Shown one piece after another: positions 10,041 through 52,138 of a stretch of 64,000 bases of DNA. Under the pieces are notes generated by a model, which was given only the letters and a program-made list of their open reading frames with translations, was not told the origin of the DNA and did not search any database. The stretch's first letter is position 1. Every line of letters begins with the position of its first letter. The position numbers and the translations under genes are program-made. The stretch is from a virus. Lineage: Duplodnaviria; Heunggongvirae; Uroviricota; Caudoviricetes. The stretch is taken from the IMG/VR virus record IMGVR_UViG_3300036876_000145, positions 19,489 to 83,488 of that record; one strand, written 5' to 3'.

Positions 10041-10811
10041 ATGAGTAGTTTACTCGAAATAGCTATTGAGCTGGCGCTGAAAGCACACCATGGGCAAATA
10101 GACTCGGATGGTGACCCTCACATTCTTCACAGCTTAGAGGTCATGTTTGCTGTAAAAAAAGAACTGGAATGTGCCCCCAATGAAACTCCAGATTGTTGCC
10201 TTCCCGTTTTATATGGAGCTACAAAAGAGCAACTTTTAGTAGCGGCTGTACTTCACGATGTGGTTGAAGACACTGATTTTTCTCTTGATCAGGTTCGTAA
10301 AGAATTCGGAGATGTGGTTGCAGATATCGTAGATTCCGTTACCCGACGTGAATCCGATGGAATAAAAGAATTTTATCGTGATTTTATTTATCGAGCCCGC
10401 GCGTCGAAAGGCGGAAGACTAGTTAAAATCGCAGACCTCCTCACAAATCTTAAACGCCTTCCAAATATTAAAATCGCTCACCCAAAATGGCATGACAAAC
10501 TTCAATATAAATATCACTTAGCAAAACGGGTGTTGCAGACTGAAGATGATGCTGCTTACAAGGTGGGTCAGTATACGCAGTTCGGAGGCTACGTGGTGCA
10601 GACTGAAGATGATGCTGCTTACAAGGTGGGCCAGCAGTTCGGAGGCTACGAAAAAGTGCGGCAGGTAAAGCTTTGGGAGAAGCTTTCTGGGGAGATTAGG
10701 GGTTATGACCCAAAGCAGTATTTTATTGCTGATCCCGATGGTAAACGCAAAGAAATTTCATCTGCTGAGTTTACATTCTTATTTCCTACCAAGCTACCCG
10801 AACCGAACTAG
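10041..10811 (+). CDS. small alarmone hydrolase, SpoT/Mesh1-type HD-domain (p)ppGpp hydrolase
   Basis: ALKAHHGQ...DPHILHSLEV, LHDVVEDT (HD motif) and KIADLLTNL match the RelA/SpoT hydrolase domain. Contains the internal tandem repeat VLQTEDDAAYKVGQ x2. Confidence 0.8.
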   Translation: MSSLLEIAIELALKAHHGQIDSDGDPHILHSLEVMFAVKKELECAPNETPDCCLPVLYGATKEQLLVAAVLHDVVEDTDFSLDQVRKEFGDVVADIVDSVTRRESDGIKEFYRDFIYRARASKGGRLVKIADLLTNLKRLPNIKIAHPKWHDKLQYKYHLAKRVLQTEDDAAYKVGQYTQFGGYVVQTEDDAAYKVGQQFGGYEKVRQVKLWEKLSGEIRGYDPKQYFIADPDGKRKEISSAEFTFLFPTKLPEPN

Positions 10812-10879: not shown

Positions 10880-12391
10880 ATGTCGATGACTGACAAGGAA
10901 ATCGCTGTTGTCAATAATGCTCGTGAAAAGATTACGGAGCAGCAAAATCTTTTAAAACGCCTCACCGCCGCCGCTTATCATGTGGGAGTCGTTACCGCTG
11001 TTTTGGATAAATCGGTGATTGTAGTTACGGCAAATCAAGTTTTTGAGTTAGATCAAGTTGAAAGTTCTATCCCAGTAAAAGTAGGAATGTCAGTAGACGT
11101 TCATCCCGAAACGGGACAAATTGTTCGGGTAAGCGACTACACTACTTACGGGGTATCTGGAACTGTCGTCCAAATAGACGATAAAACAATCCAACTTAAT
11201 ACCCCATCTGGTATATTGGCTACTGATTACGCTACCGTCCCCGTGGAAATTGGGGATCATGTGATCATGGACAGTACAAACCATGTCATCATCAAAAAAA
11301 TAAATCAGACTTCTAAATTTGCCTTTAAAACGAATGCAGTTTTAACCTGGGATGATATTGGCGCATGCGAAGATGCTAAAAAGGCAATTATTGCAGCGCT
11401 GGAAACTCCTTATGTTAAAAAAGATATTTTTAAGTATTTCCACAAAAAAGAAGTTAAAGGGGCTCTTTTGTGGGGTCGCGCAGGGAACGGTAAAACGCTC
11501 ATCGGAAGAGCGGCCGCAGGTTCCTTGGCTCGTATGCACAGCAAAGAATCAGTGGAATCCGGATTTGTTTACATTAAAGGGCCGGAGATTTTAGATAAAT
11601 ATGTAGGTGAGTCAGAAAGTCAAATTCGTTTGGCATTTGATTTTTGTAAACGCCACTACAAAAAATACGGGTACCCTGCTATTTTATTCATTGATGAAGC
11701 AGATGCTATTTTAATGCGCCGGGGAAGCCGCACATCCGCTGGCATGGAGCAAACCATTGTTCCCCAATTTCTCTCTGAAATGGATGGAATTGAAGATAGC
11801 GGGACTTTTGTGCTTTTGGCAACCAATCGGGCTGATACGCTGGATCCCGCTGTAATTCGTCCTGGGCGTATAGATCGACCAGTTTATGTAGCGCCCCCAA
11901 CGAAGGAAAATGCGCCATCCATTTGGAATATTCATATGCGGAATGTTCCTTTATCCAAGGGGGTCAGCTCTGAGGAATTGATTAAAACTACCAATGAAAG
12001 ACTTTTTAGCGAACAATATCCATTGTATAAATTGGAAACAACTATAGGAACTAGGGTTTTCAGTTTAGGTAGTCTGGTCAGTGGAGCGCTCATCGCTGGT
12101 ATTGTAGAGCGAGCTTCGGCGGTTGCTATTGATCGTAATAATGACGCTAAAAATATTGATGGGTTGTGTCAAAAAGATTTCGACATTGCTTTAACAGCTA
12201 TGCATAAAGAGCAGTATGGTATGAATCACATGGATGAGCTACGAGAGTTCGTTGAGAATCAAAAATTGCAAGTAACAGCTATGGAGCAGTACCATAACGG
12301 GGTGAAGATCGATGTTCGTTCTCCATCTTCACCTACGGCACAACTGGTAGCTGTTCCAATTCCAAGTTCAAAACAGAGGTATGATTCCTAA
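10880..12391 (+). CDS. AAA+ ATPase of the proteasome-activating PAN/Mpa/ARC type
   Basis: N-terminal coiled coil plus OB-like segment, Walker A GRAGNGKT, Walker B ILFIDEADAI, second region of homology LLATNRADTLDPAVIRPGRIDR. Confidence 0.85.
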   Translation: MSMTDKEIAVVNNAREKITEQQNLLKRLTAAAYHVGVVTAVLDKSVIVVTANQVFELDQVESSIPVKVGMSVDVHPETGQIVRVSDYTTYGVSGTVVQIDDKTIQLNTPSGILATDYATVPVEIGDHVIMDSTNHVIIKKINQTSKFAFKTNAVLTWDDIGACEDAKKAIIAALETPYVKKDIFKYFHKKEVKGALLWGRAGNGKTLIGRAAAGSLARMHSKESVESGFVYIKGPEILDKYVGESESQIRLAFDFCKRHYKKYGYPAILFIDEADAILMRRGSRTSAGMEQTIVPQFLSEMDGIEDSGTFVLLATNRADTLDPAVIRPGRIDRPVYVAPPTKENAPSIWNIHMRNVPLSKGVSSEELIKTTNERLFSEQYPLYKLETTIGTRVFSLGSLVSGALIAGIVERASAVAIDRNNDAKNIDGLCQKDFDIALTAMHKEQYGMNHMDELREFVENQKLQVTAMEQYHNGVKIDVRSPSSPTAQLVAVPIPSSKQRYDS

Positions 12392-12601
12392 ATGTCTCAA
12401 GTACAAAAAGAAAGACCACAAGAAAAGAAACCTCGCCCTCAAGAAAATCATGGTCCAACTCTCGATGCAAATATTGACATAGGGGATGCGGATGATATTT
12501 TGAAGGAGCTTGAAGAAATTGAACACCCGAACCAGAATATACCAGAATATTTTAGAGCACCCTGTTGTGTAGCAATAGCTAAAAAGAAATCGGTTCGCTA
12601 A
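12392..12601 (+). CDS. Pup-like small acidic protein (candidate ligand of the adjacent unfoldase)
   Basis: 69 aa. N-terminus MSQVQKER resembles Pup MAQEQTKR. Acidic helix DADDILKELEEIE resembles TDDLLDEIDDVLEE. Gene order right after an Mpa-like ATPase. Lacks the terminal GGQ/GGE. Confidence 0.4.
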   Translation: MSQVQKERPQEKKPRPQENHGPTLDANIDIGDADDILKELEEIEHPNQNIPEYFRAPCCVAIAKKKSVR

Positions 12602-12909
12602 TGCAGGAAAAGAAAACAAAACCGGCAATTCCTGTAAAGAAAGGAAAAGGTATTTCTCCGATCAATATCCATCTTGACCCTGTAGGCGACATTGTGGGTG
12701 AATTGTATGAGATCTCAAATCCCCGTCAGCGATTCGAAATTCAGTACACTGAAATTGATATACGTTCCACAAGGGGTGTTTGCCCTAACACTGGGCAGTA
12801 CACCGATTTATCATTTAGCGCTGAAAAACCTCGTATTCAAGCTTGTAGAGTGGGTTGTTCTTGCCACGCCTGTCTTTACAATAATTGTATCGGACACATA
12901 GAGCCATGA
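12601..12909 (+). CDS. hypothetical protein
   Basis: 102-aa ORF with a Cys-rich C-terminus. Confidence 0.4.
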   Translation: MQEKKTKPAIPVKKGKGISPINIHLDPVGDIVGELYEISNPRQRFEIQYTEIDIRSTRGVCPNTGQYTDLSFSAEKPRIQACRVGCSCHACLYNNCIGHIEP

Positions 12910-13220
12910 ATTTATCCGCTTTATTCCAACTGGTATACCTTAGCATCCCGTGTGGTGCTCTGAGTGCATTGATCACCCAAGGGGCGATATTTAACCCTCT
13001 ACATGCTGCGTTACGTTTACGTAGCCCTTGGCTGGACGAATTGCTTTCCTGCCCATGGTGTACAAGTCAGTGGATTGCGGCTATTTTGGTGTGTATTTAT
13101 CACCCAATCGTGATCTCTTGTTGGGCTCCAATTGACTATTTTGTATCAATTTTAGTGATGGCTGCACTTGCGTCTGTCACCGTTAAGCTGGTATACTCAA
13201 TATACAAGTCTATGGACTAA
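12885..13220 (+). CDS. small membrane protein
   Basis: 111 aa, hydrophobic, Cys/Trp-rich. Confidence 0.4.
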   Translation: MYRTHRAMNLSALFQLVYLSIPCGALSALITQGAIFNPLHAALRLRSPWLDELLSCPWCTSQWIAAILVCIYHPIVISCWAPIDYFVSILVMAALASVTVKLVYSIYKSMD

Positions 13221-13225
13221 TAATT

Positions 13226-15322
13226 ATGGGTCTTCAAGAATACACCACAGCGCTAAACGCGAAACTAGAAAAAGCACGGGACGCTTATTACAAGAAGGGC
13301 GAACCCGTGATGTCCGATGCTGAATATGACGCTCAGGAAAAAGAGTTGGCGGATATAATATCGGCTAATCCTCAATTGAAGGTGTTCGCCCCTGTACTCC
13401 ATACAGTGGGTTCCGATGTAACGGCCTCTGGAAGAGTGAAGCACAGCCGTCCCATGCTCAGCATTGAGAACAAATACACTGTTGATGACTTTGTGGAATG
13501 GGCTAAGAAAATATGGGCAGGATATCCCGACGCCAAATTCTGCTTAGAGCCAAAATTTGATGGTGTGAGCGTAGAATTAAGGTATAGGCATGGAAAATTG
13601 CATCAAGCCGTTTCCCGCGGTACGGGCAGTGAAGGAGAAGATTGCACTTTACAGGTAATGGCGATCAAATCCATTCCAAAAACAGTACCTAATAGTTTTC
13701 CAAATGTGTTTGACATTCGGGGAGAAATGGTCATGCGGAATGACACCCTTGAACGTCTCAACGCTGAGGCCCAAAAATATGGGGGTAAAATTTATCAGTC
13801 CACCCGTAATCTAACAGCGGGTACCATGAAAAAGCAAGACGCTAAAATTGTAGCTAGTCGTGACCTTGAATATAGACCTTGGGAAGTGACAGGTTCAGAT
13901 TTAAATGATAGTGGGTTTGCCCGCTTGGATATGCTTGTTGATGCGGGGTTTGTCGCTCCCTTGGGAGAACTGGTAGAAGATGAAGCTTCACTACGAGCTG
14001 TTTTAGCGAAGAAACTTAAGGAGCGCACAACTAAACTTCGTGATATTCTTTCCTTGGAAACTGATGGCGTAGTCATTAAAGTAGATTCGAATGCTTTACG
14101 CACACAGTTAGGAGTTGCTTCTAAATATACCAACTGGCAAACCTGCTTCAAACCCCAATCTGCCTCTGGTACTACGTATCTACGCAGCATCGAATGGCAG
14201 GTAGGACGAACAGGAAAATTGTCTCCTGTTGCGGAATGTGACCCCGTGATACTGGCTTCCGCGAAGGTCGAACACGCCAGTCTTAACAACATCTCCTGGA
14301 TTAAAGAAAAAGGTTTGAAACTGGGGGCAAAGGTAGAAATGCTGCGATCCGGGGATGTGATCCCTCAAATCGTTCGTGTGATTGACGAAGGGGATGATGA
14401 AATCATTCCACCAACAAAATGTCCGGAATGCGCTGGAAAAGTTGTGGAGATGGATGAGGGCGGAGTAGGCATCATTCAACATTTTTGTACCAATCAAGCA
14501 TGCCCCGGTATTCTACGGGGGTATTTGGCTTTTATTGGTAGTAGGGATGTACTAGAAATCGATGGGTTGGGTCCAGAAGCAGCAAGAACACTAGTGAAAG
14601 AGGAAGGGATCCATGATCTGGCTGGGCTTTTTAATTTTTATAATAGATGCCAAGATAAAAGACTCTCCATGGATACAAATAAAGAATTTATCGCCTATGC
14701 TCGAATGATAGGATTTGATGCCACTCTTCCCAAAATGTTGGATTCCTTAGAGAAGGCTAAAACCGCTCCTTGGGAGCGTTGGATCAAAGCTTTGGGGATT
14801 CCTATGATTGGGGAAACTCATGGTAAAGCTTTGGTGACATTTTTTAAGCTCACCCCAGAGAGCTTCAAAGATTTATGGCAAATTACCCAAAACTTGGAAG
14901 AGAACAAAATTGAGGGTATAGGGCCGCAGAAAATAAAAGCTTTATCTGAATGGGGGGCGAACCCTGACAACAAAGTTTTGTGTTTGTCATTATTCAATTT
15001 AGGTGTGCGTCCTACTCCTCCGGAAACGCCTAAAATAGTAGCTGGGGCACCTCTAAGTGGTATTATTTTCTGCATTACAGGGGAGTTTGACGAAGATAGA
15101 AACTCTCTTATCAAGAAACTTGTTAGCTTAGGGGCCGAATCTAAAACTGGTGTAACCAAAAAAATAAATCTTTTGATCGTTGGTGATGACGCGGGAAAAA
15201 CTAAGTTGACTAAAGCCGCAGAATTAGGTATAAAACAAGTAGGGAAAGATTGGCTCGTTAAAACTTTGTCCGATAGCGGCATTAAAATGTCGCAAAATAA
15301 CTTTGTTCCAGAGCAGGCGTAA
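13226..15322 (+). CDS. ligA: NAD-dependent DNA ligase
   Basis: Ia domain YYKKGEPVMSDAEYD, adenylation KxDG (EPKFDGVSVEL), OB domain, Cys4 zinc finger CPECAGKV...CTNQACPG, HhH region, C-terminal BRCT. Confidence 0.9.
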   Translation: MGLQEYTTALNAKLEKARDAYYKKGEPVMSDAEYDAQEKELADIISANPQLKVFAPVLHTVGSDVTASGRVKHSRPMLSIENKYTVDDFVEWAKKIWAGYPDAKFCLEPKFDGVSVELRYRHGKLHQAVSRGTGSEGEDCTLQVMAIKSIPKTVPNSFPNVFDIRGEMVMRNDTLERLNAEAQKYGGKIYQSTRNLTAGTMKKQDAKIVASRDLEYRPWEVTGSDLNDSGFARLDMLVDAGFVAPLGELVEDEASLRAVLAKKLKERTTKLRDILSLETDGVVIKVDSNALRTQLGVASKYTNWQTCFKPQSASGTTYLRSIEWQVGRTGKLSPVAECDPVILASAKVEHASLNNISWIKEKGLKLGAKVEMLRSGDVIPQIVRVIDEGDDEIIPPTKCPECAGKVVEMDEGGVGIIQHFCTNQACPGILRGYLAFIGSRDVLEIDGLGPEAARTLVKEEGIHDLAGLFNFYNRCQDKRLSMDTNKEFIAYARMIGFDATLPKMLDSLEKAKTAPWERWIKALGIPMIGETHGKALVTFFKLTPESFKDLWQITQNLEENKIEGIGPQKIKALSEWGANPDNKVLCLSLFNLGVRPTPPETPKIVAGAPLSGIIFCITGEFDEDRNSLIKKLVSLGAESKTGVTKKINLLIVGDDAGKTKLTKAAELGIKQVGKDWLVKTLSDSGIKMSQNNFVPEQA

Positions 15323-17955: not shown

Positions 17956-19857
17956 ATGGCTGGACATGTTACCCCACAAGCGAAGGTTCTTTTGGTTATT
18001 GTTGGAGTTGTAGGACTCTGTTTCTTAGGTAAGACAGCGATGGAACGGGGCTGGATGCCAACTCCCAACATCATGAAGGCGATTGTCCCATCCCACATTT
18101 CACTTCCAGAAGTGAAAGATGCACAGGTTGCGAATGTTGTACCGGCACCCCTACCACAAAGCACACCGGCAACCGTTTCTAATACGCCTATCATCGGAGA
18201 AGTTTGGGAATGGAATGCTATGTTAGGTCATCTATTGGCAAACGGCGGTAAACATACAACCGCTGGTTCCCTGATGGCAAAGCGTAATGTTAATCTGACA
18301 CTTAAGAGGCAAGATCTCACCGATCAAATGCAATTGGATTTGATCGCTTGTGCCAGCCAGCTAGCGGGGGGGTCTACGGATTGTTCCACCGGAGCGAACT
18401 ATGTTATTATCATGGGCGACGGTGCGGGGCAATTTGCAGCTGCTACCAATCCAAAGCTTTATGACTTGGACTGCAAGGGAAAGCCAAAGGGCTGCGTTTC
18501 GAAGTATACGCTCAAGGTTATCGCCGCAACTGGATATAGCCGCGGAGAAGATGCCTTTTTGGCCCCTCCGAATGTAAAGAAAGATTCCAAGTCTTTCAAT
18601 CAATCCCCTATGCCTGGGTCGCAAGATTCCAAGGGTCAGGAAATTACTGGCCTATTGGTTGAAGGCGTTCTTCGTGATGGTGATTGGAACATCGCCTTAA
18701 AGTGGGCTGGTGATAACGCCATCCCCAATAACCCGGACGAAAAGACTTTCGATCCAGATGCAGTTAACTGGATCAATGCTCCGGATTACAACACCGCCGC
18801 TACAGATTATGTCGCCGGTAAGTGCGAAGATCGTAAACTCGTGCATGCGGGGCGTCCTACAGGGGATATGGTGCATGTCTGTGTAAACTCCCTTGTGACT
18901 TGGACACCCGGAGATGTTGTAGCCGTGACGAAGAAGGGCGGCGTAGTGAAGGTTGTTTCTTCCAAACAAAATCGCAGTCAGATGCCCGCTGTGATTATTG
19001 GTCCGGCAAAGTTTTTCCAAGACAATCGGGAAGAAATCACTAACATGCTCGCTGCTACTTTCGAAGGTGGCGACCAAGTGAAGGCGTTTGACTTGGCTCT
19101 GCACAAGGCGGCAGCTATTTCATCCGATGTTTATGACGATAAGGGTGATGCTCCAAACGAAAACGGAGACTACTGGTACCGTTATTACAAGGGTGTTCCG
19201 TACAAGGATCCCACCACGGGGCAGATAGTCGAACTAGGCGGTTCGTCTGTGAACAACTTGGATGATAACCTTATCTTGTTTGGTATGAAGGATAAGGGGA
19301 ATGACAACTTCCGCTCAACTTATACGCTCTTTGCGAACATTGATGTACAGCAATACCCAACTTTGTTCAAAGAGACTCCAATTCCTGATGTGAAGCTTGT
19401 GGAAGATAAGTCTTTCATCCAGGGAGCGAAGGATATACTCAGCGGGGATAACAACACCGGCTCCGAAGCAGCGGAACCAGCGTATGAACAGCAAGCTACG
19501 GGAAGTGTCATTGGTCAGCGTGCCTATGATATCAACTTCAAGACGAATGAAGCGAAACTTACCGAGGCTGGTGAGGCACAGTTGAAGCAATTGAAGGATG
19601 GCTGGGCAATCACCGGAGCGTTTATTCAGGTCGATGGCTATACAGACAGCACAGGCAATGAAGATCACAACCTTGAACTATCAAAGGGACGTGCGGCCGC
19701 TGTGGTTACATACCTGCACACAAACTGGCCGACAAACTTCCCGGCAAAGCGTTTCAAAGCCACGGGTCACGGTTCTCAAGACCCCGTAGCTTCTAACGCT
19801 ACAGCCGAAGGGAAGGCTCAAAATCGTAGGGTTACGATTACCCTGCTAGGCAAGTAA
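17956..19857 (+). CDS. OmpA-family protein (N-terminal TM anchor, C-terminal OmpA/MotB peptidoglycan-binding domain)
   Basis: Start set at MAGHV, which has an aggag Shine-Dalgarno. C-terminus ...GYTDSTGNEDHNLELSKGRAAAVVTYL is an OmpA C-like domain. Confidence 0.75.
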   Translation: MAGHVTPQAKVLLVIVGVVGLCFLGKTAMERGWMPTPNIMKAIVPSHISLPEVKDAQVANVVPAPLPQSTPATVSNTPIIGEVWEWNAMLGHLLANGGKHTTAGSLMAKRNVNLTLKRQDLTDQMQLDLIACASQLAGGSTDCSTGANYVIIMGDGAGQFAAATNPKLYDLDCKGKPKGCVSKYTLKVIAATGYSRGEDAFLAPPNVKKDSKSFNQSPMPGSQDSKGQEITGLLVEGVLRDGDWNIALKWAGDNAIPNNPDEKTFDPDAVNWINAPDYNTAATDYVAGKCEDRKLVHAGRPTGDMVHVCVNSLVTWTPGDVVAVTKKGGVVKVVSSKQNRSQMPAVIIGPAKFFQDNREEITNMLAATFEGGDQVKAFDLALHKAAAISSDVYDDKGDAPNENGDYWYRYYKGVPYKDPTTGQIVELGGSSVNNLDDNLILFGMKDKGNDNFRSTYTLFANIDVQQYPTLFKETPIPDVKLVEDKSFIQGAKDILSGDNNTGSEAAEPAYEQQATGSVIGQRAYDINFKTNEAKLTEAGEAQLKQLKDGWAITGAFIQVDGYTDSTGNEDHNLELSKGRAAAVVTYLHTNWPTNFPAKRFKATGHGSQDPVASNATAEGKAQNRRVTITLLGK

Positions 19858-23116: not shown

Positions 23117-23539
23117 ATGTGTTTACTAAGCGTTACAAAAAATCATCGTAACCCAATCAAGGGACCTATTATCGCTTGGAAGATAGTTGAAGTAATATCG
23201 GGTAAAGTTTTTACCCCGTTTCAACAGTTCCGCATAACTAAAAAATGGAAGTCTGCTTGGAAAGGCTACCTGGCCGCAAATGATAGTTGCTGCACTCGCT
23301 ACAAAAGTGGGTTTCACTGTTATACTACACAACAAGATGCTGCAAAGGCGCGTGTATTGTATATGTATATGAAAACAAAAAAAGTGATCCCAGTTCAAAT
23401 CGATGAAATTACAACTACCGGCATTGATGGCACAACTTACGAAATTAAGCAAGCGATGCTAAAAAACTATGTTGCTCAAAAAATTCGATTGATGCCCCAA
23501 CCAGCAAAGAAAAAGAAAAATAAACTGAAGAGAGGATAA
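23117..23539 (+). CDS. MCL-family small protein (paralog 2)
   Basis: MCLLSV..., AWKIV, GFHCY, IPVQIDEITTTGIDG, NYVAQKIRLMP plus a basic tail. Confidence 0.55.
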   Translation: MCLLSVTKNHRNPIKGPIIAWKIVEVISGKVFTPFQQFRITKKWKSAWKGYLAANDSCCTRYKSGFHCYTTQQDAAKARVLYMYMKTKKVIPVQIDEITTTGIDGTTYEIKQAMLKNYVAQKIRLMPQPAKKKKNKLKRG

Positions 23540-23542
23540 GTT

Positions 23543-24049
23543 ATGTGTCTCGCTCGCATACTTGAAAATCATGAAGATCAGCCAATCCCAGGTCCTATAA
23601 AAGCTTGGAAGATTGTCTTACGGGGTAAGAAAGCACTCTCCTGTTTTAAGAACAATTCTATAACGATCACCTGGCAAACAGATACGCCAGGTGATAGAAT
23701 CGCTTCTTGGGAGTGGGATGAAAAAGGCTTGACCGTCGTCCTCGAAATTCGCGCCGGAACCGGCGGCGACGAGGCTACGCTCTTCGTAGGTGGTTGGAAA
23801 ACTTATAAAACAGGATTCCATACTTACTTCACTAAGGAAGCAGCTCAAGAAGCTTTGAATTCTTGGAACAAGAATTCGGATGATGCATATGGTACATGTA
23901 AAATTATTCCCGTGGAGATAATGGATATCACAACTATTGGAACTGATGGTAGTGTGTCAGACTCTTGCGATCTTAAAAATTATGTCTCGCAAAAGATCAG
24001 ACTATATCCGATAAAAATGAAAGCGAAGCCCAAAACCAAGCGAAAATAG
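23543..24049 (+). CDS. MCL-family small protein (paralog 3)
   Basis: MCLARI..., AWKIV, GFHTYF, IPVEIMDITTIGTDG, NYVSQKIRLYP plus a basic tail; has a ~50-aa insertion. Confidence 0.55.
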   Translation: MCLARILENHEDQPIPGPIKAWKIVLRGKKALSCFKNNSITITWQTDTPGDRIASWEWDEKGLTVVLEIRAGTGGDEATLFVGGWKTYKTGFHTYFTKEAAQEALNSWNKNSDDAYGTCKIIPVEIMDITTIGTDGSVSDSCDLKNYVSQKIRLYPIKMKAKPKTKRK

Positions 24050-25392: not shown

Positions 25393-25481
25393 AGGAAGTG
25401 TGGGTGAATGGTTAAACCAGCGGTTTGCTAAGCCGCCGAAGCCTGAAAGGGCTATCCGAGTTCGAGCCTCGGCACTTCCGC
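25393..25481 (+). tRNA. tRNA-Ser (GCT), type II
   Basis: Acceptor ggaagtg/cacttcc, anticodon loop ttGCTaa, long variable arm, T-arm tccgagttcgagcctcgga, CCA encoded. Confidence 0.8.
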
Positions 25482-25515
25482 CATAACATCAAAACAAACT
25501 TTCTGTGTTCTTAGC

Positions 25516-25965
25516 ATGGACACTAAAATAGTTTGTAGGGAAAAACGGCATCGTTGGGCTAAAAGGCGTAGGCAAGATCCTAAATTTTTACCTAGCATTA
25601 TTTGGCGAGATTCTCGTAGCTCAGATAAAAAATTGCTTCGGGAAAATGATCTTGACAAAGACTTTATTAAGGATAAAATTAGCAATGGATGTTTTTACTG
25701 CGGAGAGACAAAAATAAGGATGACCTTGGATAGAATAGATAATAGCTTAGGTCATTTAAAGACGAATGTCAATCCAGCATGTATGCGATGCAACTATCTA
25801 CGCAGGGACATGCCATACGATGCCTGGTTGTTTTTAGTTGAAGGTATTCGTAAAGCCACAGAGCAGGGAGCTTTTAACGGATGGCTAGGCGGTAACACTA
25901 GTAAATATGCTGGTGGGGAAGATTTAATGGACTTCATCGAAGTCGGTGAAGGTCCAGAAGAGTAA
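25516..25965 (+). CDS. HNH endonuclease
   Basis: CFYCG...LDRIDNSLGHLKTNVNPACMRCN HNH motif; inside the tRNA cluster. Confidence 0.7.
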   Translation: MDTKIVCREKRHRWAKRRRQDPKFLPSIIWRDSRSSDKKLLRENDLDKDFIKDKISNGCFYCGETKIRMTLDRIDNSLGHLKTNVNPACMRCNYLRRDMPYDAWLFLVEGIRKATEQGAFNGWLGGNTSKYAGGEDLMDFIEVGEGPEE

Positions 25966-26064
25966 AAATTCGCAGCGGTGTTGCGTACAGTTACTTCGAT
26001 ACCCACTGGGGGAAACCCGGCAGTGGAGTTGTACCAACTGTATGTTTTATGTTCCCTGCGATTT

Positions 26065-26153
26065 GATGACATGGGGGAGATGGATTAACCCAGTAGCTTG
26101 GAAAGCTACCATACCGCAAGGTATCGATCGTTCGAATCGGTCTGTCATCGCCA
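26065..26153 (+). tRNA. tRNA-Ser (GGA), type II
   Basis: Acceptor gatgaca/tgtcatc, anticodon loop ttGGAaa, long variable arm, T-arm gatcgttcgaatcggtc, CCA encoded. Confidence 0.7.
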
Positions 26154-26158
26154 AGTTT

Positions 26159-26245
26159 AGAGAGTAACCAGTGGGCATGGTAGGTCGCCTCGAAAGCGAC
26201 TGCTTCTAGAAATAGGGCACACCGGTTCGAGTCCGGTACTCTCTG
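26159..26245 (+). tRNA. tRNA-Ser (CGA), type II
   Basis: Acceptor agagagt/actctct, anticodon loop ctCGAaa, long variable arm, T-arm accggttcgagtccggt, no encoded CCA. Confidence 0.65.
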
Positions 26246-26252
26246 CCTTTAC

Positions 26253-26351
26253 CGAGAGATGGGCGAGATGGATTATGCCGCCAGTCTTGAAAACTGGTAT
26301 ACCGTAAGGTATCAAGGGTTCGAATCCCTTTCTCTCGGCCAACTTTATGGT
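26253..26351 (+). tRNA. tRNA-Ser (TGA), type II
   Basis: Acceptor cgagaga/tctctcg, anticodon loop ctTGAaa, long variable arm, T-arm aagggttcgaatccctt, CCA encoded. Confidence 0.7.
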
Positions 26352-26370
26352 ATTATCGTAAGGAGTTACG

Positions 26371-26691
26371 ATGAAGAGAAAAAATAAACCACTGTTGTCC
26401 ATTGAGAACGCACGAGAATTTAACGCCAAAATAGAGTGGGAAGGAAGTTTGGATTATGTTTTGCAGAACTGGGATTTTAAAGAATTCAAAGATAAAAAAT
26501 TCAATAGTTTGCGAAAAGCGTACATTAAGGCCCACCAGGATATGATGGATTATTGCTATCTGGATAGAGTTCTAGAAGATACCACCGAACCATCAGATCT
26601 CGATGAATCTGACCGCTGCCCTTCTTGTGGAGATGCGCTGGAATTAAACGGTACATGTTATACATGTACGGGTGAGCAAAATGAGAATTAA
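26371..26691 (+). CDS. hypothetical protein with C-terminal zinc ribbon
   Basis: 106 aa; CPSCGD...CYTC. Confidence 0.45.
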   Translation: MKRKNKPLLSIENAREFNAKIEWEGSLDYVLQNWDFKEFKDKKFNSLRKAYIKAHQDMMDYCYLDRVLEDTTEPSDLDESDRCPSCGDALELNGTCYTCTGEQNEN

Positions 26692-26947
26692 GCTCATCGT
26701 TAGAAAAAATTTGCACATGAGTGAAAATAAGCAATCCGCTCAATGTGTACATGCAGCTCTAGGGCTTTACAAAAAAAATCCGCAGGATCATTGGTCATGC
26801 GTGGTGCTGGATGCTAGCGATAAAAAATTCGAGGAAGCAAAAGAAGCGCATCCAGAGGGATATGTAGTGACCGATGCGGGCTACACGGAAATTCCAGCGG
26901 GCAGTGAAACTGTTTTGGCTTTCTATGAGGATGACCCCAGAGAATAA
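26681..26947 (+). CDS. peptidyl-tRNA hydrolase, PTH2 family
   Basis: MRIKLIVRKNLHMSENKQSAQCVHAALG resembles the PTH2 N-terminal signature (KMVLVVRTDL...GKIAAQCSHA). Sits inside the tRNA cluster. Confidence 0.65.
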   Translation: MRIKLIVRKNLHMSENKQSAQCVHAALGLYKKNPQDHWSCVVLDASDKKFEEAKEAHPEGYVVTDAGYTEIPAGSETVLAFYEDDPRE

Positions 26948-27135
26948 TGCTGATTCATTGTGATCGATGTAAGCGAAAAGTTGAAGGCGATTTTCACGAA
27001 AGGTTTACCTGCGGATTTTACGATGTAAGCTTGGGTTGTTGGAGAAAATACGCCAGGAATTACGAGACCATTATTTGCGATGAATGTATGCATGCAGACC
27101 CGCAGTATATACAAAATTATGGAGTTACAAGATAG
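26947..27135 (+). CDS. zinc-ribbon mini-protein
   Basis: 62 aa; CDRCKRK ... CDEC. Confidence 0.4.
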   Translation: MLIHCDRCKRKVEGDFHERFTCGFYDVSLGCWRKYARNYETIICDECMHADPQYIQNYGVTR

Positions 27136-27218
27136 GCCCGGATGGCGAAATTGGAAGACGCGCTCGGCTTAAGATCGAGTCCGAAAGGGTGGGGGTTCGA
27201 GTCCCCCTCTGGGTACCA
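27136..27218 (+). tRNA. tRNA-Leu (TAA), type II
   Basis: Acceptor gcccgga/tctgggt with two G-U pairs, anticodon loop ctTAAga, variable arm, T-arm gggggttcgagtccccc, CCA encoded. Confidence 0.65.
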
Positions 27219-37672: not shown

Positions 37673-37748
37673 TCCTGCGTAGCTCAGGGGCAGAGCGAAC
37701 GGCTGTTAACCGTTTGGTCGGTGGTTCGAATCCATCCGCAGGAGCCAA
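37673..37748 (+). tRNA. tRNA-Asn (GTT)
   Basis: Acceptor tcctgcg/cgcagga, D-arm gctcaggggcagagc, anticodon loop ctGTTaa, T-arm ggtggttcgaatccatc, CCA encoded. Confidence 0.8.
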
Positions 37749-37822
37749 ATTTGGGTCAGGAGGTCGGCGGTCTCGTACCCGATCTTCCCGTATACTGTAC
37801 GCCTTCGGGCTACAGGCAGATG

Positions 37823-37860
37823 ACGGGTGTAGCTCAGTAGTAGAGCACCTGATCTAATTT
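37823..37860 (+). ncRNA. 5' tRNA-like half (acceptor, D-arm and anticodon stem, loop containing CTA) with no matching 3' half
   Basis: acgggtg-ta-gctcagtagtagagc-a-cctga-tctaatt; followed by a hairpin ttgagcgag...ctcgctcaa instead of a 3' stem. Confidence 0.25.
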
Positions 37861-37952
37861 ACTTTGAGCGAGTTACGTGGAAGGCAACTTTGTTCATGGA
37901 GGGCAACGACCAAAGCGACTCGCTCAATAAGTTTTGAAGTTTGAAGTCATGA

Positions 37953-38030
37953 TACACGTAGCTCAATTGGTAGAGCAGCGCCATTAACGGCGCTGATGTG
38001 GGTTCGATCCCCACCGTGAGGAAGGCTTCT
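37953..38030 (+). tRNA. tRNA-like gene with a non-canonical anticodon loop (attaac) and a poorly paired acceptor end
   Basis: D-arm tagctcaattggtagagc, anticodon hairpin gcgcc-attaac-ggcgc, T-arm gtgggttcgatccccac. Only about 4 acceptor base pairs. Confidence 0.3.
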
Positions 38031-38102
38031 TGGGAGAAGATAGACACTTGATCAGTGGACCGTTTCGTGAAATCCTTCAATCCCACCGGTTTTAGAAAGT
38101 TT

Positions 38103-38178
38103 GCGTTGGTAGCTCAATTGGCGGAGCACTCGACTCTTAATCGATAGGCTGTGGGATCGTTGCCCACCCAGCGCACCA
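38103..38178 (+). tRNA. tRNA-Lys (CTT)
   Basis: Acceptor gcgttgg/ccagcgc, D-arm gctcaattggcggagc, anticodon loop ctCTTaa, unusual T-loop atcgttg, CCA encoded. Confidence 0.6.
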
Positions 38179-38536
38179 AGATTTAGGAATTGATTATAAG
38201 CCAGTAAGCGTGTATTATTATGATTGACCCAAATCATCTCTACACTTTGCATCAGACATACACAGGAACTGATTGTGCTTTGTGCGGGAAGCCAGCGACA
38301 GAGCATCCATTAGAGTATTGGATGATTAACGGTAAACAACAAGAATTAGTTAGAATTCATATTGGGGAATGAGCTAGTAGGGTTATAGCGTTCCGCTGAA
38401 GACGGAAAGAATCCAGTTCAACTCTGGGATTCCCCACCAAATTTAAAAAGGAGAAGTAAAATGAACTACATGAATTTAAAACAGGAGGTACAAAATATGC
38501 ATACTCATTAAGATACTGCAAAGGAGCGGTAGAACT

Positions 38537-40612: not shown

Positions 40613-40686
40613 ATCTCTAAATGCCTCTATCGTCCAACTGGAAGGGCACCGGCCTTCTAAGCCGTGGATCCGGGTTCAAGTCCTGG
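40613..40686 (+). tRNA. tRNA-Arg (TCT)
   Basis: Acceptor gcctcta/tggaggt, anticodon loop ctTCTaa, T-arm ccgggttcaagtcctgg, CCA encoded. Confidence 0.65.
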
Positions 40687-40698
40687 TGGAGGTACCAA

Positions 40699-40774
40699 AA
40701 ATTTTAATGCCCCCGTAGCTCAGTTGGTAGAGCCACCGCCTTTTAAGCGGAGGGTCGCTGGATCGTTCCCGGCC
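40699..40774 (+). tRNA. tRNA-Lys (TTT)
   Basis: Acceptor gcccccg/cgggggt, D-arm gctcagttggtagagc, anticodon loop ctTTTaa, T-loop atcgttc, CCA encoded. Confidence 0.65.
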
Positions 40775-40780
40775 GGGGGT

Positions 40781-40856
40781 ACCAAACTTTGGGTGTATCG
40801 TCTAATGGCTAAGACCCCGATCTTTTAAATCGGCCGATTTCGGTTCGAGTCCGAAT
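40781..40856 (+). tRNA. tRNA-Lys (TTT), second copy with a different body
   Basis: Acceptor gggtgta/tgcaccc, anticodon stem ccgat/atcgg with loop ctTTTaa, T-arm ttcggttcgagtccgaa, CCA encoded. Confidence 0.65.
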
Positions 40857-40952
40857 GCACCCACCAAATATTCTACTTGACAAATTCCCCCTAAAACTCT
40901 TAAAGTAAAAATAGGTAACCGAAACCTCGTCAGACCAACCGGAGATGTTTTA

Positions 40953-41461: not shown

Positions 41462-42778
41462 ATGATGAAAAAAGAAATGACCCTTTTGGGTCTAGTCGCC
41501 GCTACGTATTTTATGGTAAGCGGAGGCCCGTACGGTCTAGAAGACCTAATTGCTCAAACTGGTTACGGATGGGGAATACTCATTCTTTGCTTAGTGCCCT
41601 TCCTGTGGGCACTGCCAACCGCTATGATGGTTGGTGAACTCGCCTCTGCGATACCGAATCGCGGGGGTTTTTATATTTGGGTGCAACGTGCCCTTGGAAA
41701 ATTTTGGGGATTCCAGGAAGCTTGGCTTTCATTAGCGGCTTCCATATTTGATATGGGAATCTACCCGCTACTTTTTATTTCTTACCTGGGTGTATTGGCT
41801 CCAAGTTTCACCGCAGGGTGGCACGGCTCGCTTATAGCAACGGCTCTAATCGCTGTTTGCGTATTGTGGAACCTTCGGGGTGCCAAAGCTGTAGGAAACG
41901 GCTCTGTGGCGTTAGGAGCCCTTATGGTGAGCCCTTTTGTGATTATCACCCTAGCAGCTCTCCGACACGCCCATCTGACCCATGTTACGGGTCATCCTCA
42001 CGCCGTCAGTCTTATGGGCGGTATTATGGTCGCTATGTGGAACTTCATGGGTTGGGATAACGCCAGCACCATAGCCACAGAAGTCAAAAAACCTCAACGA
42101 ACCTACCCCATCGCCATGATGGTGACTATGCTGTTGATTGTTGGAAGCTATATTCTCCCCGTAGCAGCGTCTTGGTATCTGGGAGTACCCCTGTCTGCCT
42201 GGTCAACAGGGAGTTGGGCGACTATTGGTGAAATCATCGCGGGTTCTTGGGTACGAGACGCCATTGTACTGGGTGGAATGATCAGTGCAGCGGGGATGTT
42301 GAACTCCCTCATGATGAGCTATTCTCGTATTCCCCCAGCGCTGGCTGAAGATCATTATCTGCCTCGCATATTCACAAAAATAAATGCAGTGTCAGTTCCC
42401 ATGATAGCTTTATTTGCCTTGGCGACAGTTTGGGCAACAGCGTTCGGTTTGAATTTTGACCGTCTGGTGATGCTGGATATTTTACTTTATGGAACGAGTC
42501 TTATTCTGGAGTTTATCGCTTTAGTGGTATTGCGTTGGAAAGAACCAGATTTGCCTCGACCTTTTCGTGTGCCTGGGGGAAAATTGGGCGCTATCTTGGT
42601 AGGAGTTTGCCCAACGATACTTCTCTTCGCGGCCGGTATTTTTGGGGATCATAACGGACTATTGCTAGGCTTAGGCATGATTCTATCCGGGGTGGGTGCT
42701 TGGTGTGGAATTCATGGATTTCGTGCCGCTAAATATGAAAAAATCGCTCCCACTTTCTCAACTACCACGATCCCCTAA
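41462..42778 (+). CDS. APC-superfamily amino acid/polyamine permease
   Basis: 12-TM pattern; N-terminal GGPYGLEDLI...GELASAIPNRGGFYIWVQRALG typical of amino acid permeases. Confidence 0.85.
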   Translation: MMKKEMTLLGLVAATYFMVSGGPYGLEDLIAQTGYGWGILILCLVPFLWALPTAMMVGELASAIPNRGGFYIWVQRALGKFWGFQEAWLSLAASIFDMGIYPLLFISYLGVLAPSFTAGWHGSLIATALIAVCVLWNLRGAKAVGNGSVALGALMVSPFVIITLAALRHAHLTHVTGHPHAVSLMGGIMVAMWNFMGWDNASTIATEVKKPQRTYPIAMMVTMLLIVGSYILPVAASWYLGVPLSAWSTGSWATIGEIIAGSWVRDAIVLGGMISAAGMLNSLMMSYSRIPPALAEDHYLPRIFTKINAVSVPMIALFALATVWATAFGLNFDRLVMLDILLYGTSLILEFIALVVLRWKEPDLPRPFRVPGGKLGAILVGVCPTILLFAAGIFGDHNGLLLGLGMILSGVGAWCGIHGFRAAKYEKIAPTFSTTTIP

Positions 42779-44037: not shown

Positions 44038-44543
44038 ACTATCAAAATAAACTTCAAAAAATACAAAAAGAGTTTGTGCTGGGAATAAAAGATAAATTCA
44101 CCTGTATGACTAAATTTGAGCAAGTTTTATGGGAATACGGTCTTCTACCAAAACAAGAAGAGTTAGATAGGGAAATGTCTAATGAACATTTTTCTCGCTT
44201 GATACAAATGGCTATGGAACATACAGATACTCATTCAGATCGAGATCCTGAAAATAGTGAAGAATTGGATAATGAATACGCAGCGGCTTTTTATTCTGTA
44301 AGAGTTTGCCCAATTTGTCATATTACGCAATCCCGTCCATTAGTTGGTAGCGTGAGTGATTTAGCTCGAAAAATAACTGCATTAAACCCTCCTCGTTGTG
44401 AACGCTGCGCCATTGATTGGATGAAAAAACATCTAGAGAATTCCCCAAAAGGTGAAAATGTAGATTTGATAAAACCACTTAGCAAAGAAGAGAAAAAATT
44501 TTTTGATGAGTATGAGAAGGAAATGGAAGACTTTGAGGTTTAG
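44034..44543 (+). CDS. hypothetical zinc-binding protein
   Basis: 169 aa; CPICH...CERCA. Confidence 0.45.
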   Translation: MNYQNKLQKIQKEFVLGIKDKFTCMTKFEQVLWEYGLLPKQEELDREMSNEHFSRLIQMAMEHTDTHSDRDPENSEELDNEYAAAFYSVRVCPICHITQSRPLVGSVSDLARKITALNPPRCERCAIDWMKKHLENSPKGENVDLIKPLSKEEKKFFDEYEKEMEDFEV

Positions 44544-45232
44544 TGGTATTATTATGGTATATGAATATGAACGGCTCGACGAGCGCAATCCCGCCGCTTT
44601 GCGGTGGGTTAGCGAGTGCCTTGGTTCTCGACGTCGCAGTTATGGCGGACCCACAGAATGGTACCGTTCAACATCTCGGATTCAACCCAGCGGCAACCAA
44701 GTACAACTGGAGACGCAGGAGAGCCAACCTCAAGAGTGCAGGCAAGCGTCGTACACTGCGCCAACTGAGCCGTAAGCAATCACGACGTACAACACATGAG
44801 AATCACATCGTGTCTAAGCAAATAGTTTCCTATGCCGTAAAGCATCACCGCGCAATTGCCGTAGAAAACCTTGAGACAGTTCGTAAGCCGAACAGCAAGA
44901 TTCGGAAGTACGTCGAGAAGTCTCAATGGTCTTTCTATCAGTTGTTGTCGTTCCTCAAGTACAAAGCGGCTTTGCACGGCGTTATCATCGCGGAAGTCAA
45001 TCCTGCATACACCTCGCAGAATTGCTCTCGCTGTGGACAGCGGAACACTCCAAACGGCAAGAAGTACGTTTGCGAGCATTGCGGACACACCGACCATAGA
45101 GATGCTAACGCGGCATTCAACATCGCCAAGCGCGGTATTGAGTTCCTATCTATGGGCGGCACTCACGACTCAGAGCGCGTGAGCGGGGCTGTATTGGTGA
45201 CGCCCTATTCTGGAGGACCAGCATATGCTTAG
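44543..45232 (+). pseudogene. IS200/IS605-family TnpB (OrfB) remnant: C-terminal RuvC-II/III plus zinc finger only
   Basis: IAVENLE (RuvC-II), CSRCGQ...CEHCGHTDHRDANAAFNIAKRG (zinc finger plus RuvC-III). The N-terminal ~170 aa and the RuvC-I GIDLG Asp are absent (HLGFNP). GC-rich. Confidence 0.55.
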
Positions 45233-49802: not shown

Positions 49803-49835
49803 AGTGTTTCCGATGTATACTAGGGATGGAGGCGA
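49803..49835 (+). promoter_or_regulatory. TGTATACTAGGG-type promoter-like element (copy A of a 40-bp duplicated block)
   Basis: atccattttcagtgtttccgatgtatactaggga is identical to 51907-51939. Extended -10-like TGTATACT sits about 10 nt before the ATG. Confidence 0.4.
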
Positions 49836-49836
49836 T

Positions 49837-50742
49837 ATGACAAAGAAAAGTAGCTCTGATGTGGCGGCTGATTTGAAAAGTGCAATGGGTTCCGCTGCCG
49901 ATGCAAAGACTATTCTCGATACACCAGATAAGAAAACCGCCAGCCGTTCCACATGGAAGGGTTATATTTCCGCTTTTGGCGTTATGCTGATTCCCGCCGC
50001 AACCCTGAAAGCCACTGATGTTGATGCTATCGAAACCCACATGTACCATAGCGCTGCTTGTCCGAATCGTTTGGTGCAGAAATACACCTGCTCTTGCTGC
50101 GACACCGAAGTCCCCAACGCTCGTACAAACGCCCTTAAGGGTGTAGAAGTGGGGGACAAAGTCATTACTCTCACTCAAGCGGAATTAGACGCTCAGAAGC
50201 CCACTAGTGACAAAATTCTCAAAGTCACCGAGTTTGTTCCCGCTGATGCGATTGATGTTACCTACTACGAATCCAGCGAATACATCGCCGCTGATAAGGG
50301 TGGGGAAAAAGCCTTCGCCACATTCCAGCAAGCCTTGGCGCAAACGGGGCGTATCGCTATCGGCACCTTCGTAAGCCGCGGTCACCAATACACTGTTGCA
50401 CTTCGCCCCAAGGGTCAGTATGGTATCGTCATGTCTTATTTGTTCGCGGAATATGAAGTTCGCAACTGCGGCAAGTGGACGCCTGTTGTTGTCAATCCGG
50501 CAGAAGTTGATTTGGTCAAGCAGCTTATGACTGAAACCGAACTGGCAAAAGAAGTATTCACCCCCGCCGCCTATGACCCCTATCTCTCTGGCGTGCGCAA
50601 GATGATTGCTGCTAAGGCAAATGGTACGGAAGTTTGCACCCCGGCTGCGGACGAAGTTCCCAAGGCTACGGATGATTTGTTGGCGGCGTTGAAAGCTACC
50701 CTGGAGCAGCAAAAGGCAAAGGCTGCAAAGGCTGGTGTATAA
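49837..50742 (+). CDS. ku: Ku protein (non-homologous end-joining DNA end-binding)
   Basis: WKGYISAFGVMLIPAATL, YYESSEYIAADKGGEKAFATFQQALAQTGRIAIGTFVSRGHQYTVALRP, YLFAEYEVR match bacterial Ku (WSGAISFGLVNVPVKLY, YYLAPDKGGEKAYALLREAL...AIARFV...LAALRP, YADEVR). A Cys-rich insert HMYHSAACPNRLVQKYTCSCCD. Confidence 0.85.
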   Translation: MTKKSSSDVAADLKSAMGSAADAKTILDTPDKKTASRSTWKGYISAFGVMLIPAATLKATDVDAIETHMYHSAACPNRLVQKYTCSCCDTEVPNARTNALKGVEVGDKVITLTQAELDAQKPTSDKILKVTEFVPADAIDVTYYESSEYIAADKGGEKAFATFQQALAQTGRIAIGTFVSRGHQYTVALRPKGQYGIVMSYLFAEYEVRNCGKWTPVVVNPAEVDLVKQLMTETELAKEVFTPAAYDPYLSGVRKMIAAKANGTEVCTPAADEVPKATDDLLAALKATLEQQKAKAAKAGV

Positions 50743-51888: not shown

Positions 51889-51937
51889 AAGGGTTAGAAA
51901 ATATCCATTTTCAGTGTTTCCGATGTATACTAGGGAT

Positions 51938-52138
51938 ATGGCAAAGAAAAAAAAGAAAAAAAGTAGCTCTGACATGGCGGCTGATTTGAAAAGCGCATTG
52001 CAGTCGTTAAACAAGATGATTGGCTATGCAAAATACGTCGAAGAAATGGATTGGTGGTATTTCAGGGAAGAAGTGCAACCGGGTTGGAAAAATGATTTAG
52101 CGGAAGCCGAAGCTATTGCGGCAAAGTTACACACTTAA
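51938..52138 (+). CDS. small protein carrying a duplicated Ku N-terminus
   Basis: MAKKKKKKSSSDMAADLKSALQS parallels the Ku start MTKKSSSDVAADLKSAMGS. The upstream 40 bp are identical to the Ku promoter region. The rest is unrelated. Confidence 0.45.
   Translation: MAKKKKKKSSSDMAADLKSALQSLNKMIGYAKYVEEMDWWYFREEVQPGWKNDLAEAEAIAAKLHT

Follow-up and report, generated by a model that had tools for sequence, protein, structure and literature searches.

To our knowledge, no bacterial tag-and-unfold system other than Pup-Mpa is well understood, and Pup-Mpa is regarded as essentially an actinobacterial system that depends on a ligase. Mpa has two OB domains ahead of its AAA module and a coiled coil that serves as the Pup receptor; residues 21–51 of Pup bind this coiled coil, with the Pup helix joining it in an antiparallel orientation, the disordered N-terminus of Pup entering the pore and cargo on the Pup C-terminus then being pulled into Mpa (PMC8755798). 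The Pup-ARC pair of Corynebacterium glutamicum works without a proteasome (PMC12288473). Here we examine an Mpa/ARC-like AAA+ unfoldase and the small Pup-like protein encoded next to it in a 64,000-nucleotide stretch of viral DNA (Caudoviricetes; positions 19,489 to 83,488 of IMG/VR record IMGVR_UViG_3300036876_000145), which we call the window and within which all positions below are counted. Both genes belong to a set of four that also encodes a second, cysteine-rich small protein and a DUF1360 membrane protein. The object is a variant of the Pup-Mpa theme that lies outside both the Pup family and the Mpa equivalog. We tentatively read the small protein as a ligase-free, Pup-like adaptor whose cysteines connect a stand-alone unfoldase with a partner in the membrane, an interpretation for which our doubts slightly outweigh our confidence.

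The gene module and its unfoldase

The four genes occupy positions 10880–13220, are co-directional on the plus strand, and each abuts or overlaps the next. The reading frames for the 503-aa ATPase (10880–12391) and the 69-aa small protein (12392–12601) are present as described in the original prediction, a model's reading of the sequence made without database searches. The TAA stop of the ATPase (12389–12391) directly abuts the ATG of the small open reading frame (ORF) at 12392, a gap of zero, and a Shine-Dalgarno-like AGAGG can be read 12 nt 5′ of this ATG (12375–12379). The 69-aa ORF then shares a TAATG stop/start overlap with a 102-aa ORF (12601–12909), and an ATGA overlap joins the latter to the gene for DUF1360, a protein of 104 aa when counted from the ATG at 12906 (12906–13220); the longest version of this ORF begins at a TTG at 12885. 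The ATPase, the small ORF or ORFs and DUF1360 make up a conserved module of three or four genes whose translation is coupled.

To survey the module, the ORFs downstream of ATPase relatives were taken from every locus retrieved. A scan of IMG/VR with a single ATPase sequence gave no match, and the relatives there were recovered by an alignment-based scan. The order of ATPase, small Cys-tailed ORF(s) and DUF1360 was observed in about 25 loci whose ATPases share 35–100% identity, and the small ORF that follows the ATPase has the same build throughout (56–89 aa). DUF1360 homologues lie downstream of the ATPase in all 25 loci, and every related locus with DUF1360 also has an equivalent small ORF after the ATPase. 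The original prediction had held that a small gene not conserved next to the ATPase would speak against its idea; this objection fails, because the small gene is conserved in that position among the relatives. The identical 69-aa protein is indexed in 210 blocks of an assembly collection, on contigs of up to 178 kb, and relatives of the locus were found on 450-kb contigs as well as in IMG/VR. Hosts of the module include IMG/VR huge-phage contigs and contigs binned as Saccharibacteria, Parcubacteria, Peribacteria, Woesebacteria, Taylorbacteria and Uhrbacteria, bacteria of the candidate phyla radiation (CPR); at one Parcubacteria locus (L038) the flanking genes are cellular. We hold the parts list of the module and the linkage of its parts with high confidence. 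A search for literature on Pup or Mpa in phages or CPR bacteria, and on the function of DUF1360, returned nothing relevant, and no description of a module made up of the unfoldase, the Cys-tailed protein and DUF1360 was found in the searchable literature.

Two further groups of ATPases came up in this survey. The 'proteasome-associated ATPase' of a Brevundimonas phage was considered as a cultured example and rejected because it has a different N-terminus, no Cys-tailed ORF and no DUF1360. Seven DPANN contigs (L044–L047, L049, L050 and L052; Woesearchaeota, Nanoarchaeota and Pacearchaeota) encode a related ATPase followed by a conserved protein of ~140 aa with the motif LPIVASARTGLAGKDDA, usually with a protein of 450–630 aa next and with no Cys-tailed ORF or DUF1360. 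Here the same motor appears to work with another set of partners.

The best NCBIfam match of the ATPase is TIGR03689 (pup_AAA) over residues 6–446. At 246.3 bits the equivalog cut-off of 504.75 bits is not reached, though this is both the best family and a full-length match, and the NCBIfam PAN models scored 115–153 bits versus 246 for pup_AAA. Pfam recognized the AAA domain alone (PF00004, E = 3e-29). An AlphaFold2 (AF2) model built on 99 homologues (predicted local distance difference test score, pLDDT, 88) shows an N-terminal helix, presumed to be the coiled-coil arm (aa 5–29; 10892–10966; pLDDT 85–95), two consecutive OB domains (aa 34–84 and 90–141; 10979–11302), an AAA module (aa 155–445; 11342–12214), a short helix-hairpin and a disordered tail. 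The OB domains are seen both in the AF2 strands and in the full-length structural alignment to Mpa, and the AAA module also in PDB sequence matches and motif conservation. When the model was searched against the PDB using Foldseek, the top 30 matches were all Mycobacterium tuberculosis Mpa (TM ~0.7, 470–500 aligned columns), with 5KWA, 5KZF and 7PX9 among the structures to which the ATPase aligned over its full length, and Rpt subunits were the next-best structural matches. TIGR03689, AF2 and Foldseek thus agree with the coiled-coil, OB and AAA architecture proposed originally. The accompanying label 'PAN/Mpa-like' stands in its Mpa half only: the protein is Mpa/ARC-like rather than PAN-like because it has two OB domains, and it also lacks the HbYX end.

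Across the 99 homologues, the Walker A motif (GxxGxGKT), the pore loop (K-[YFW]-V-G), the Walker B motif (F-x-DE), sensor 1 (N316) and the arginine fingers (R327 and R330) show little or no variation, and because of this the ATPase should be an active translocase. Its C-terminus, ...SSKQRYDS, has a Tyr at position −3 and carries neither the GQYL nor the HbYX tail used for docking to the 20S proteasome. Close relatives finish with K[YF]DA or SK[LIV]N, and distant relatives have no common tail. A helix and hairpin (aa 451–472) followed by the disordered tail sit at the place of the Mpa beta-grasp domain. Within this tail (12310–12391 and its homologues) a [VI]-A-[IV]-P-[IM]-P stretch is conserved in the close family, and this stretch together with the two alternative ends suggests a docking partner. 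The ATPase is best described as a stand-alone Mpa/ARC-like unfoldase and not as an Mpa orthologue.

The 69-aa protein and its likeness to Pup

The small protein reads MSQVQKER...DADDILKELEEIEH...FRAPCCVAIAKKKSVR and consists of a basic, Pro-rich N-terminus (aa 1–24), an acidic amphipathic helix segment IGDADDILKELEEIEH (aa 30–45; 12479–12526), a Cys pair (C58-C59; 12563–12568) and a basic tail. Scans against Pfam, PHROG, NCBIfam and PADLOC gave no match, nor did tblastn against GenBank phages. When it was compared with relatives whose ATPases are ~60% identical, codons 1–46 had a nonsynonymous divergence (pN) of 0.20–0.22 and synonymous sites were saturated (pS 0.88–1.1). Thirty-three columns are invariant among six homologues, all of them in the first 46 residues. 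The 69-aa ORF is a real gene under purifying selection. We had considered whether it could be a chance ORF, or its resemblance to Pup a coincidence without functional meaning, given that the protein is short, low in complexity and disordered and that family members score just 2–7 bits against M. tuberculosis Pup in pairwise phmmer comparisons. The purifying selection and invariant columns, the recurrence of the identical protein and the position kept in 25 loci all argue otherwise; as far as coding status is concerned the idea is already refuted, and as a whole we find it barely credible.

A terminal Cys pair is present in 29/29 members of the family, which have almost no other Cys. At or near the C-terminus the members end in forms such as CGC, CTCW, CCCC, CEC or CRC; CxC is the usual form, with CC and CCCC as its equivalents across the family. 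Among 3414 background small ORFs, C.?C falls within the last eight residues of just 2.2%. In the window clade, CC (window) or CxC (relatives) is followed by a tail of 3–22 residues, which in most members is ~10 residues long and basic. Rab-like prenylation (CXC) or acylation at the C-terminus was considered and dropped, as no supporting enzyme was seen. At the other end, the first 20 residues are K/R-rich family-wide and the N-terminus is also rich in Gln, often with a Gly run next. The likeness to Pup in this region that was noted originally is correct: the window protein begins MSQVQKER and M. tuberculosis Pup does begin MAQEQTKR, its sequence agreeing with PDB Pup chains (125 bits). The small protein of locus L029 starts MSAQEQIKKRSHKGGGGGG, compared with MAQEQTKRGGGGG in M. 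tuberculosis Pup. The helix between the two ends is acidic and amphipathic, of the type D-D-[ILV]-L-x-x-[IL]-D/E.

Profile-profile comparison supports a link to Pup in part. Aligning a 24-member family alignment to 101 Pups with hhalign returned a probability of 88% (P = 3.2e-6, score 32.6, 19 columns), pairing window residues 30–48 (IGDADDILKELEEIEHPNQ) with Pup residues 33–51 (TEETDDLLDEIDDVLEENA), the core of the Mpa-binding helix. Reversed profiles reached 16.7–16.8 and the best of 100 column shuffles 15.1, compared with the observed 32.6, and a broader Pup+UBact profile gave 76.7%. The signal comes mainly from distant family members (P = 3.6e-6), to which the window clade is itself linked by hhalign (P = 5.9e-6). 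We also ran a Pup hidden Markov model (HMM) over the 4841 small ORFs of all loci. Seven true Pups from Actinomycetaceae and Bifidobacterium loci were recovered first, and from ranks 8 and 9 UBact-like proteins of Chloroflexi and a planctomycete were interleaved with family members, 13 of which fell in the top 40 of 4841; for the family the scores of this local Pup HMM are themselves insignificant. The UBact-like proteins (L066 and L070–L079), with ends ...FRQETGE/Q or ...FRQQGGE, provided an internal positive control for the HMM. In our reading, the format of the small protein matches that of Pup, with a threading end, a receptor-binding helix and an attachment end, and its helix motif appears Pup-like.

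If this likeness extended to the chemistry, the locus could encode a true divergent pupylation-like conjugation, in which the small protein is joined covalently to targets by its C-terminal region and then brought to the unfoldase, perhaps with a protease taking part. An Mpa-like ATPase with an adjacent Pup-format small protein would fit, and part of the window's wider clade ends in ...GGFR, a vague echo of a diglycine end. Yet the window protein ends in ...PCCVAIAKKKSVR and a GGQ/GGE end occurs in 0/29 family members, as the original prediction had seen for this one protein; the C-terminus past the Cys pair is highly variable, and the true Pup/UBact loci from the same scan retain their ...GGQ or ...TGE ends. 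Nor does the ATPase have a tail for proteasome docking. Family scans found no 20S (PF00227), Dop/PafA (PF03136) or canonical Pup among the window ORFs of at least 85 aa, and the precomputed Pfam annotation of the flanks of the close clade (L001–L007) contains no Dop/PafA or 20S genes. Two options had been put forward originally, namely engagement of the unfoldase without ligation and a divergent pupylation-like module. Because Dop/PafA and 20S are missing from the window and these flanks, the first is the better one, and we consider true pupylation very improbable.

Cysteine-bearing partners and a proposed adaptor

The picture drawn in the original prediction was incomplete, as it missed the conserved C-terminal Cys pair and both of the genes that follow the 69-aa ORF. 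The product of the first of these, the 102-aa ORF, has a basic N-terminus together with a DPVGDIVGELYEI helix, and it carries a C-x3-C-x-C-x2-C-x4-C-x-G-H cluster that is longer than the Cys pair of the small protein. With hhalign its N-terminus and helix matched the small-protein family (81.5%, P = 1.1e-5), and by this comparison it is a paralogue of the small protein in these two parts. Matches to it were found by phmmer in L001, L002, L008 and L009, in the same neighbourhood in the last two. On the 178-kb contig that carries the identical small protein (L088), the equivalent of the paralogue (1710–1811 of that locus) is called at only 33 aa, and for this reason the paralogue may be disrupted or dispensable in some variants.

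The second gene encodes a protein with three membrane helices that matches Pfam PF07098 (DUF1360) at 27.2 bits, above the gathering cut-off of 21, and PHROG 781. Two Cys and one Trp are invariant in 24/24 sequences of this family, with no other invariant residues, and form the motif C-x-x-C-x-S-(H)-W (CPWCTSQW in the window). The CxxC lies at the start of the second membrane helix, right after a K/R-rich loop, and since this loop precedes it the positive-inside rule would place it at the cytoplasmic face.

From these parts we propose the following mechanism. The ATPase would form a hexameric unfoldase in which a coiled coil serves as the arm, the OB domains make up a double ring and the motor is intact. 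The acidic amphipathic helix of the small protein would dock on the N-terminal coiled coil of the ATPase, as Pup does on Mpa, and its basic disordered N-terminus would point into the pore as the threading end. The C-terminal Cys pair, together with the basic tail in the window clade, would take the place of a ligatable Gly-Gly-Gln/Glu, and the invariant CxxC of DUF1360, a small protein of the inner membrane, would keep this pair at the cytoplasmic face. Two plus two cysteines in linked partners suggest an intermolecular clasp, of which a shared Zn(Cys)4 site seems the most plausible form and a disulfide the other, and the basic tail after the Cys pair fits a membrane-proximal site for the small protein. 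The unfoldase would in this way be recruited to DUF1360 or its cargo and pull without a ligase or a proteasome; alternatively, DUF1360 or its cargo may be the client of the unfoldase. The data establish the gene set, the ATPase fold with its motifs, the Cys motifs and the fact that the three families are conserved and linked; docking of the helix on the coiled coil, threading into the pore, a bond between the cysteines and the biological target are what we infer here. Taken separately, Pup-like docking of the small protein on the ATPase seems to us evenly balanced between right and wrong, and the cysteine link between the small protein and DUF1360 possible but doubtful.

A number of results count against the proposed adaptor. 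The window protein has no match to PF05639 at E ≤ 0.1, nor do 18 family members at E ≤ 10, and a window-clade profile searched against 1.84 billion representatives returned four matches, all from the same clade and none of them Pup. The window clade alone aligns only weakly with Pup in hhalign (P = 0.004), and the window protein ranks 53rd of the 4841 small ORFs. Pup profile similarity, whose absence the original prediction had named as a refutation, is absent by HMMER and present by hhalign for the family as a whole. That similarity is limited to 16–19 columns of the acidic helix; family profiles searched against PDB sequences found no Pup and generic helices only (designed TIM barrels, S100 and HIV matrix), and because unrelated helices such as HIV matrix and the designed ones match at similar scores, the helix motif is partly generic. 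Common descent of the small family with Pup is plausible on this basis and not established, since the segment is both short and partly generic. The N-terminal helix of the ATPase is also only ~25 residues long, about half the length of the Mpa arm. In a single-chain model of the ATPase fused to the small protein, a helix formed at small-protein residues 33–41 only, the rest had a pLDDT of 30–42 and no confident docking was seen, a weak test that is not decisive because it included neither a dimeric coiled-coil arm nor paired alignments. Metal binding, disulfides and membrane topology are all predicted from sequence. Finally, the ATPase may have no part in whatever the small proteins and DUF1360 do together.

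This last point can be taken further, with the small Cys-tailed proteins and DUF1360 forming a unit of their own (in metal handling, redox or as a membrane-anchored or processed peptide), the ATPase being merely co-regulated and the helix generic. The generic helix matches, the lack of a Pup signal by HMMER and the fusion model without docking would all sit well with such a unit, as would the cysteines being the most conserved features of both partners. Against this, the order of ATPase, small ORF and DUF1360 is strict and start/stop coupled across very divergent genomes, a simple Cys peptide would not need a conserved N-terminus and helix, and the hhalign score and Pup-HMM ranking stand well above controls. 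We regard a separate unit as rather unlikely.

A Pup-format protein without a ligatable end would also be a natural competitive binder of coiled-coil receptors, and the small protein could then act as a decoy or inhibitor against the Mpa/ARC or proteasome system of a host, or it could regulate or plug the ATPase of the phage itself. Its gene always comes with that of a cognate ATPase, though, and is found in a cellular CPR context too; no host Pup system is indicated, and simple inhibition leaves the invariant Cys pair and the linkage to DUF1360 unexplained. This role seems quite improbable. A last possibility, which we think unlikely though not negligible, is that the small protein is a Pup-derived peptide that attaches by its Cys pair, through a shared metal site or a disulfide, to DUF1360 or to clients and passes them on to the stand-alone Mpa-type unfoldase; huge phages and CPR bacteria would then have an analogue of pupylation that needs no ligase and is anchored by cysteines.

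Returning to the adaptor reading, a conserved module of huge phages and CPR bacteria would keep an Mpa-type motor and a Pup-format partner, with a Cys pair matched to a CxxC membrane protein replacing the ligatable end. If this is true, recruitment to a proteasome-type unfoldase is possible without conjugation enzymes, DUF1360 gains its first functional context, and it becomes testable whether Pup originated as a non-covalent adaptor or as a ligated tag. Were the protein instead a cysteine-anchored tag, it would represent a new chemical means of tying a tag for degradation or unfolding to its target, and the Pup/Mpa lineage would extend far outside Actinobacteria and into viruses. The module also offers a compact three-protein system that is open to in vitro reconstitution.

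Genome setting and comparison with known systems

The 64-kb window has the look of a fragment of a very large phage genome, with 21 tRNA genes, nearly all genes on one strand, and functions that include HNH, endonuclease VII, SNF2, Ku, NAD-ligase, Thg1, PTH2 and RlaP. The genes for an 863-aa protein, an HD_4 (SpoT-like) hydrolase, a dGTP-diphosphohydrolase-like protein and a ligase were considered as parts of the module and left out since their synteny is confined to the close clade L001–L007; the functional link to the 863-aa protein and the hydrolase suggested originally was not borne out. The HD_4 hydrolase (10041–10811) contains an internal tandem duplication, VLQTEDDAAYKVGQYTQFGGYVVQTEDDAAYKVGQQFGGY, at about aa 165–205, and its relatives are shorter (199–227 aa).

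The tRNA genes (1817–1894, 25394–27218, 36008–38439 and 40623–40866) lie mostly in three clusters and include four tRNA-Ser and five tRNA-Arg. ARAGORN also reported an odd tRNA with a two-base anticodon at 37952–38022, with Thg1, PTH2 and RlaP-like genes nearby. The tRNAs and these three genes suggest a large investment in translation and tRNA repair that is typical of huge phages. An 826-aa protein (30675–33155) has a major-vault-protein shoulder (E = 4e-26) and vault repeat domains, which is unusual for a phage-like genome. A Ku homologue (PF02735) is encoded at 49804–50742, and a separate 74-aa ORF (51914–52138) opens with a repeat of its N-terminal ~30 residues (MFPMYTRDGGDMTKKSSSDVAADLKSA); together with the NAD-dependent ligase (13226–15322) the Ku homologue hints at end-joining capacity. 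Four paralogous ORFs (1194–1628, 1597–1770, 23117–23539 and 23543–24049) begin with MCL (MCLSSVEKI, MCLYTITQT, MCLLSVTKNH and MCLARILENH); several contain an AWKIV motif, and they have no Pfam match. The window also encodes an ORF with a TnpB/Cas12f-like TNB domain (44543–45232) and a complete amino-acid permease (41462–42778).

The closest described relative in design is Pup-Mpa/ARC. The window ATPase shares the N-terminal helix (presumed coiled coil), two OB domains, AAA motor and Ar-hydrophobic-Gly pore loop of Mpa/ARC, and the small partner, like Pup, is 60–90 aa long and mostly disordered, its N-terminus being K/R-rich and containing Gln and its middle carrying an acidic amphipathic helix. 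As with the C. glutamicum Pup-ARC pair, the window pair may act without a 20S proteasome. Unlike Pup-Mpa, the window system has no GGQ/GGE end and, in the regions scanned, no Dop/PafA or 20S, and its small protein has a terminal Cys pair instead. The ATPase also differs from Mpa in its arm, about half as long, in having no GQYL tail and in the short helix-hairpin that replaces the beta-grasp domain. The pair stands apart from the Pup and Mpa families themselves, falling below the TIGR03689 cut-off and having no PF05639 match. Whereas the Pup ORF starts ~1.5–2.7 kb downstream of the ATPase in the actinobacterial loci that we recovered, the window small gene abuts the ATPase, and the module is found in huge phages and CPR bacteria rather than in Actinobacteria.

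UBact is comparable in being a small disordered protein encoded near an Mpa-type ATPase, and the N-termini are alike (MSQEQIRRE... at a planctomycete locus and MEQERTQRE... at a Chloroflexi locus, compared with MSQVQKERPQ in the window and MEQERKKKK in L036). The UBact-like proteins finish with ...RQETGE/Q or ...RQQGGE, whereas the window protein has no R-x-x-G-E/Q end; they are encoded ~2 kb downstream of ATPases of 750–870 aa, and all of them lack both a Cys tail and a neighbouring DUF1360 gene. PAN and the Rpt subunits share the coiled coil, OB and AAA design with the window ATPase, but PAN combines a single OB domain with an HbYX end, compared with two OB domains and the ending RYDS here. 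For the cysteines, the nearest parallels are intermolecular zinc clasps and hooks, such as the CxC tail of CD4/CD8 with the CxxC of Lck and the Rad50 zinc hook. In the former, a terminal CxC and the CxxC of a partner make up four cysteines, as the small protein and DUF1360 would do together. The module differs from these clasps in having no sequence relationship to them, in metal binding that is purely a prediction here, and in a partner that is a polytopic membrane protein.

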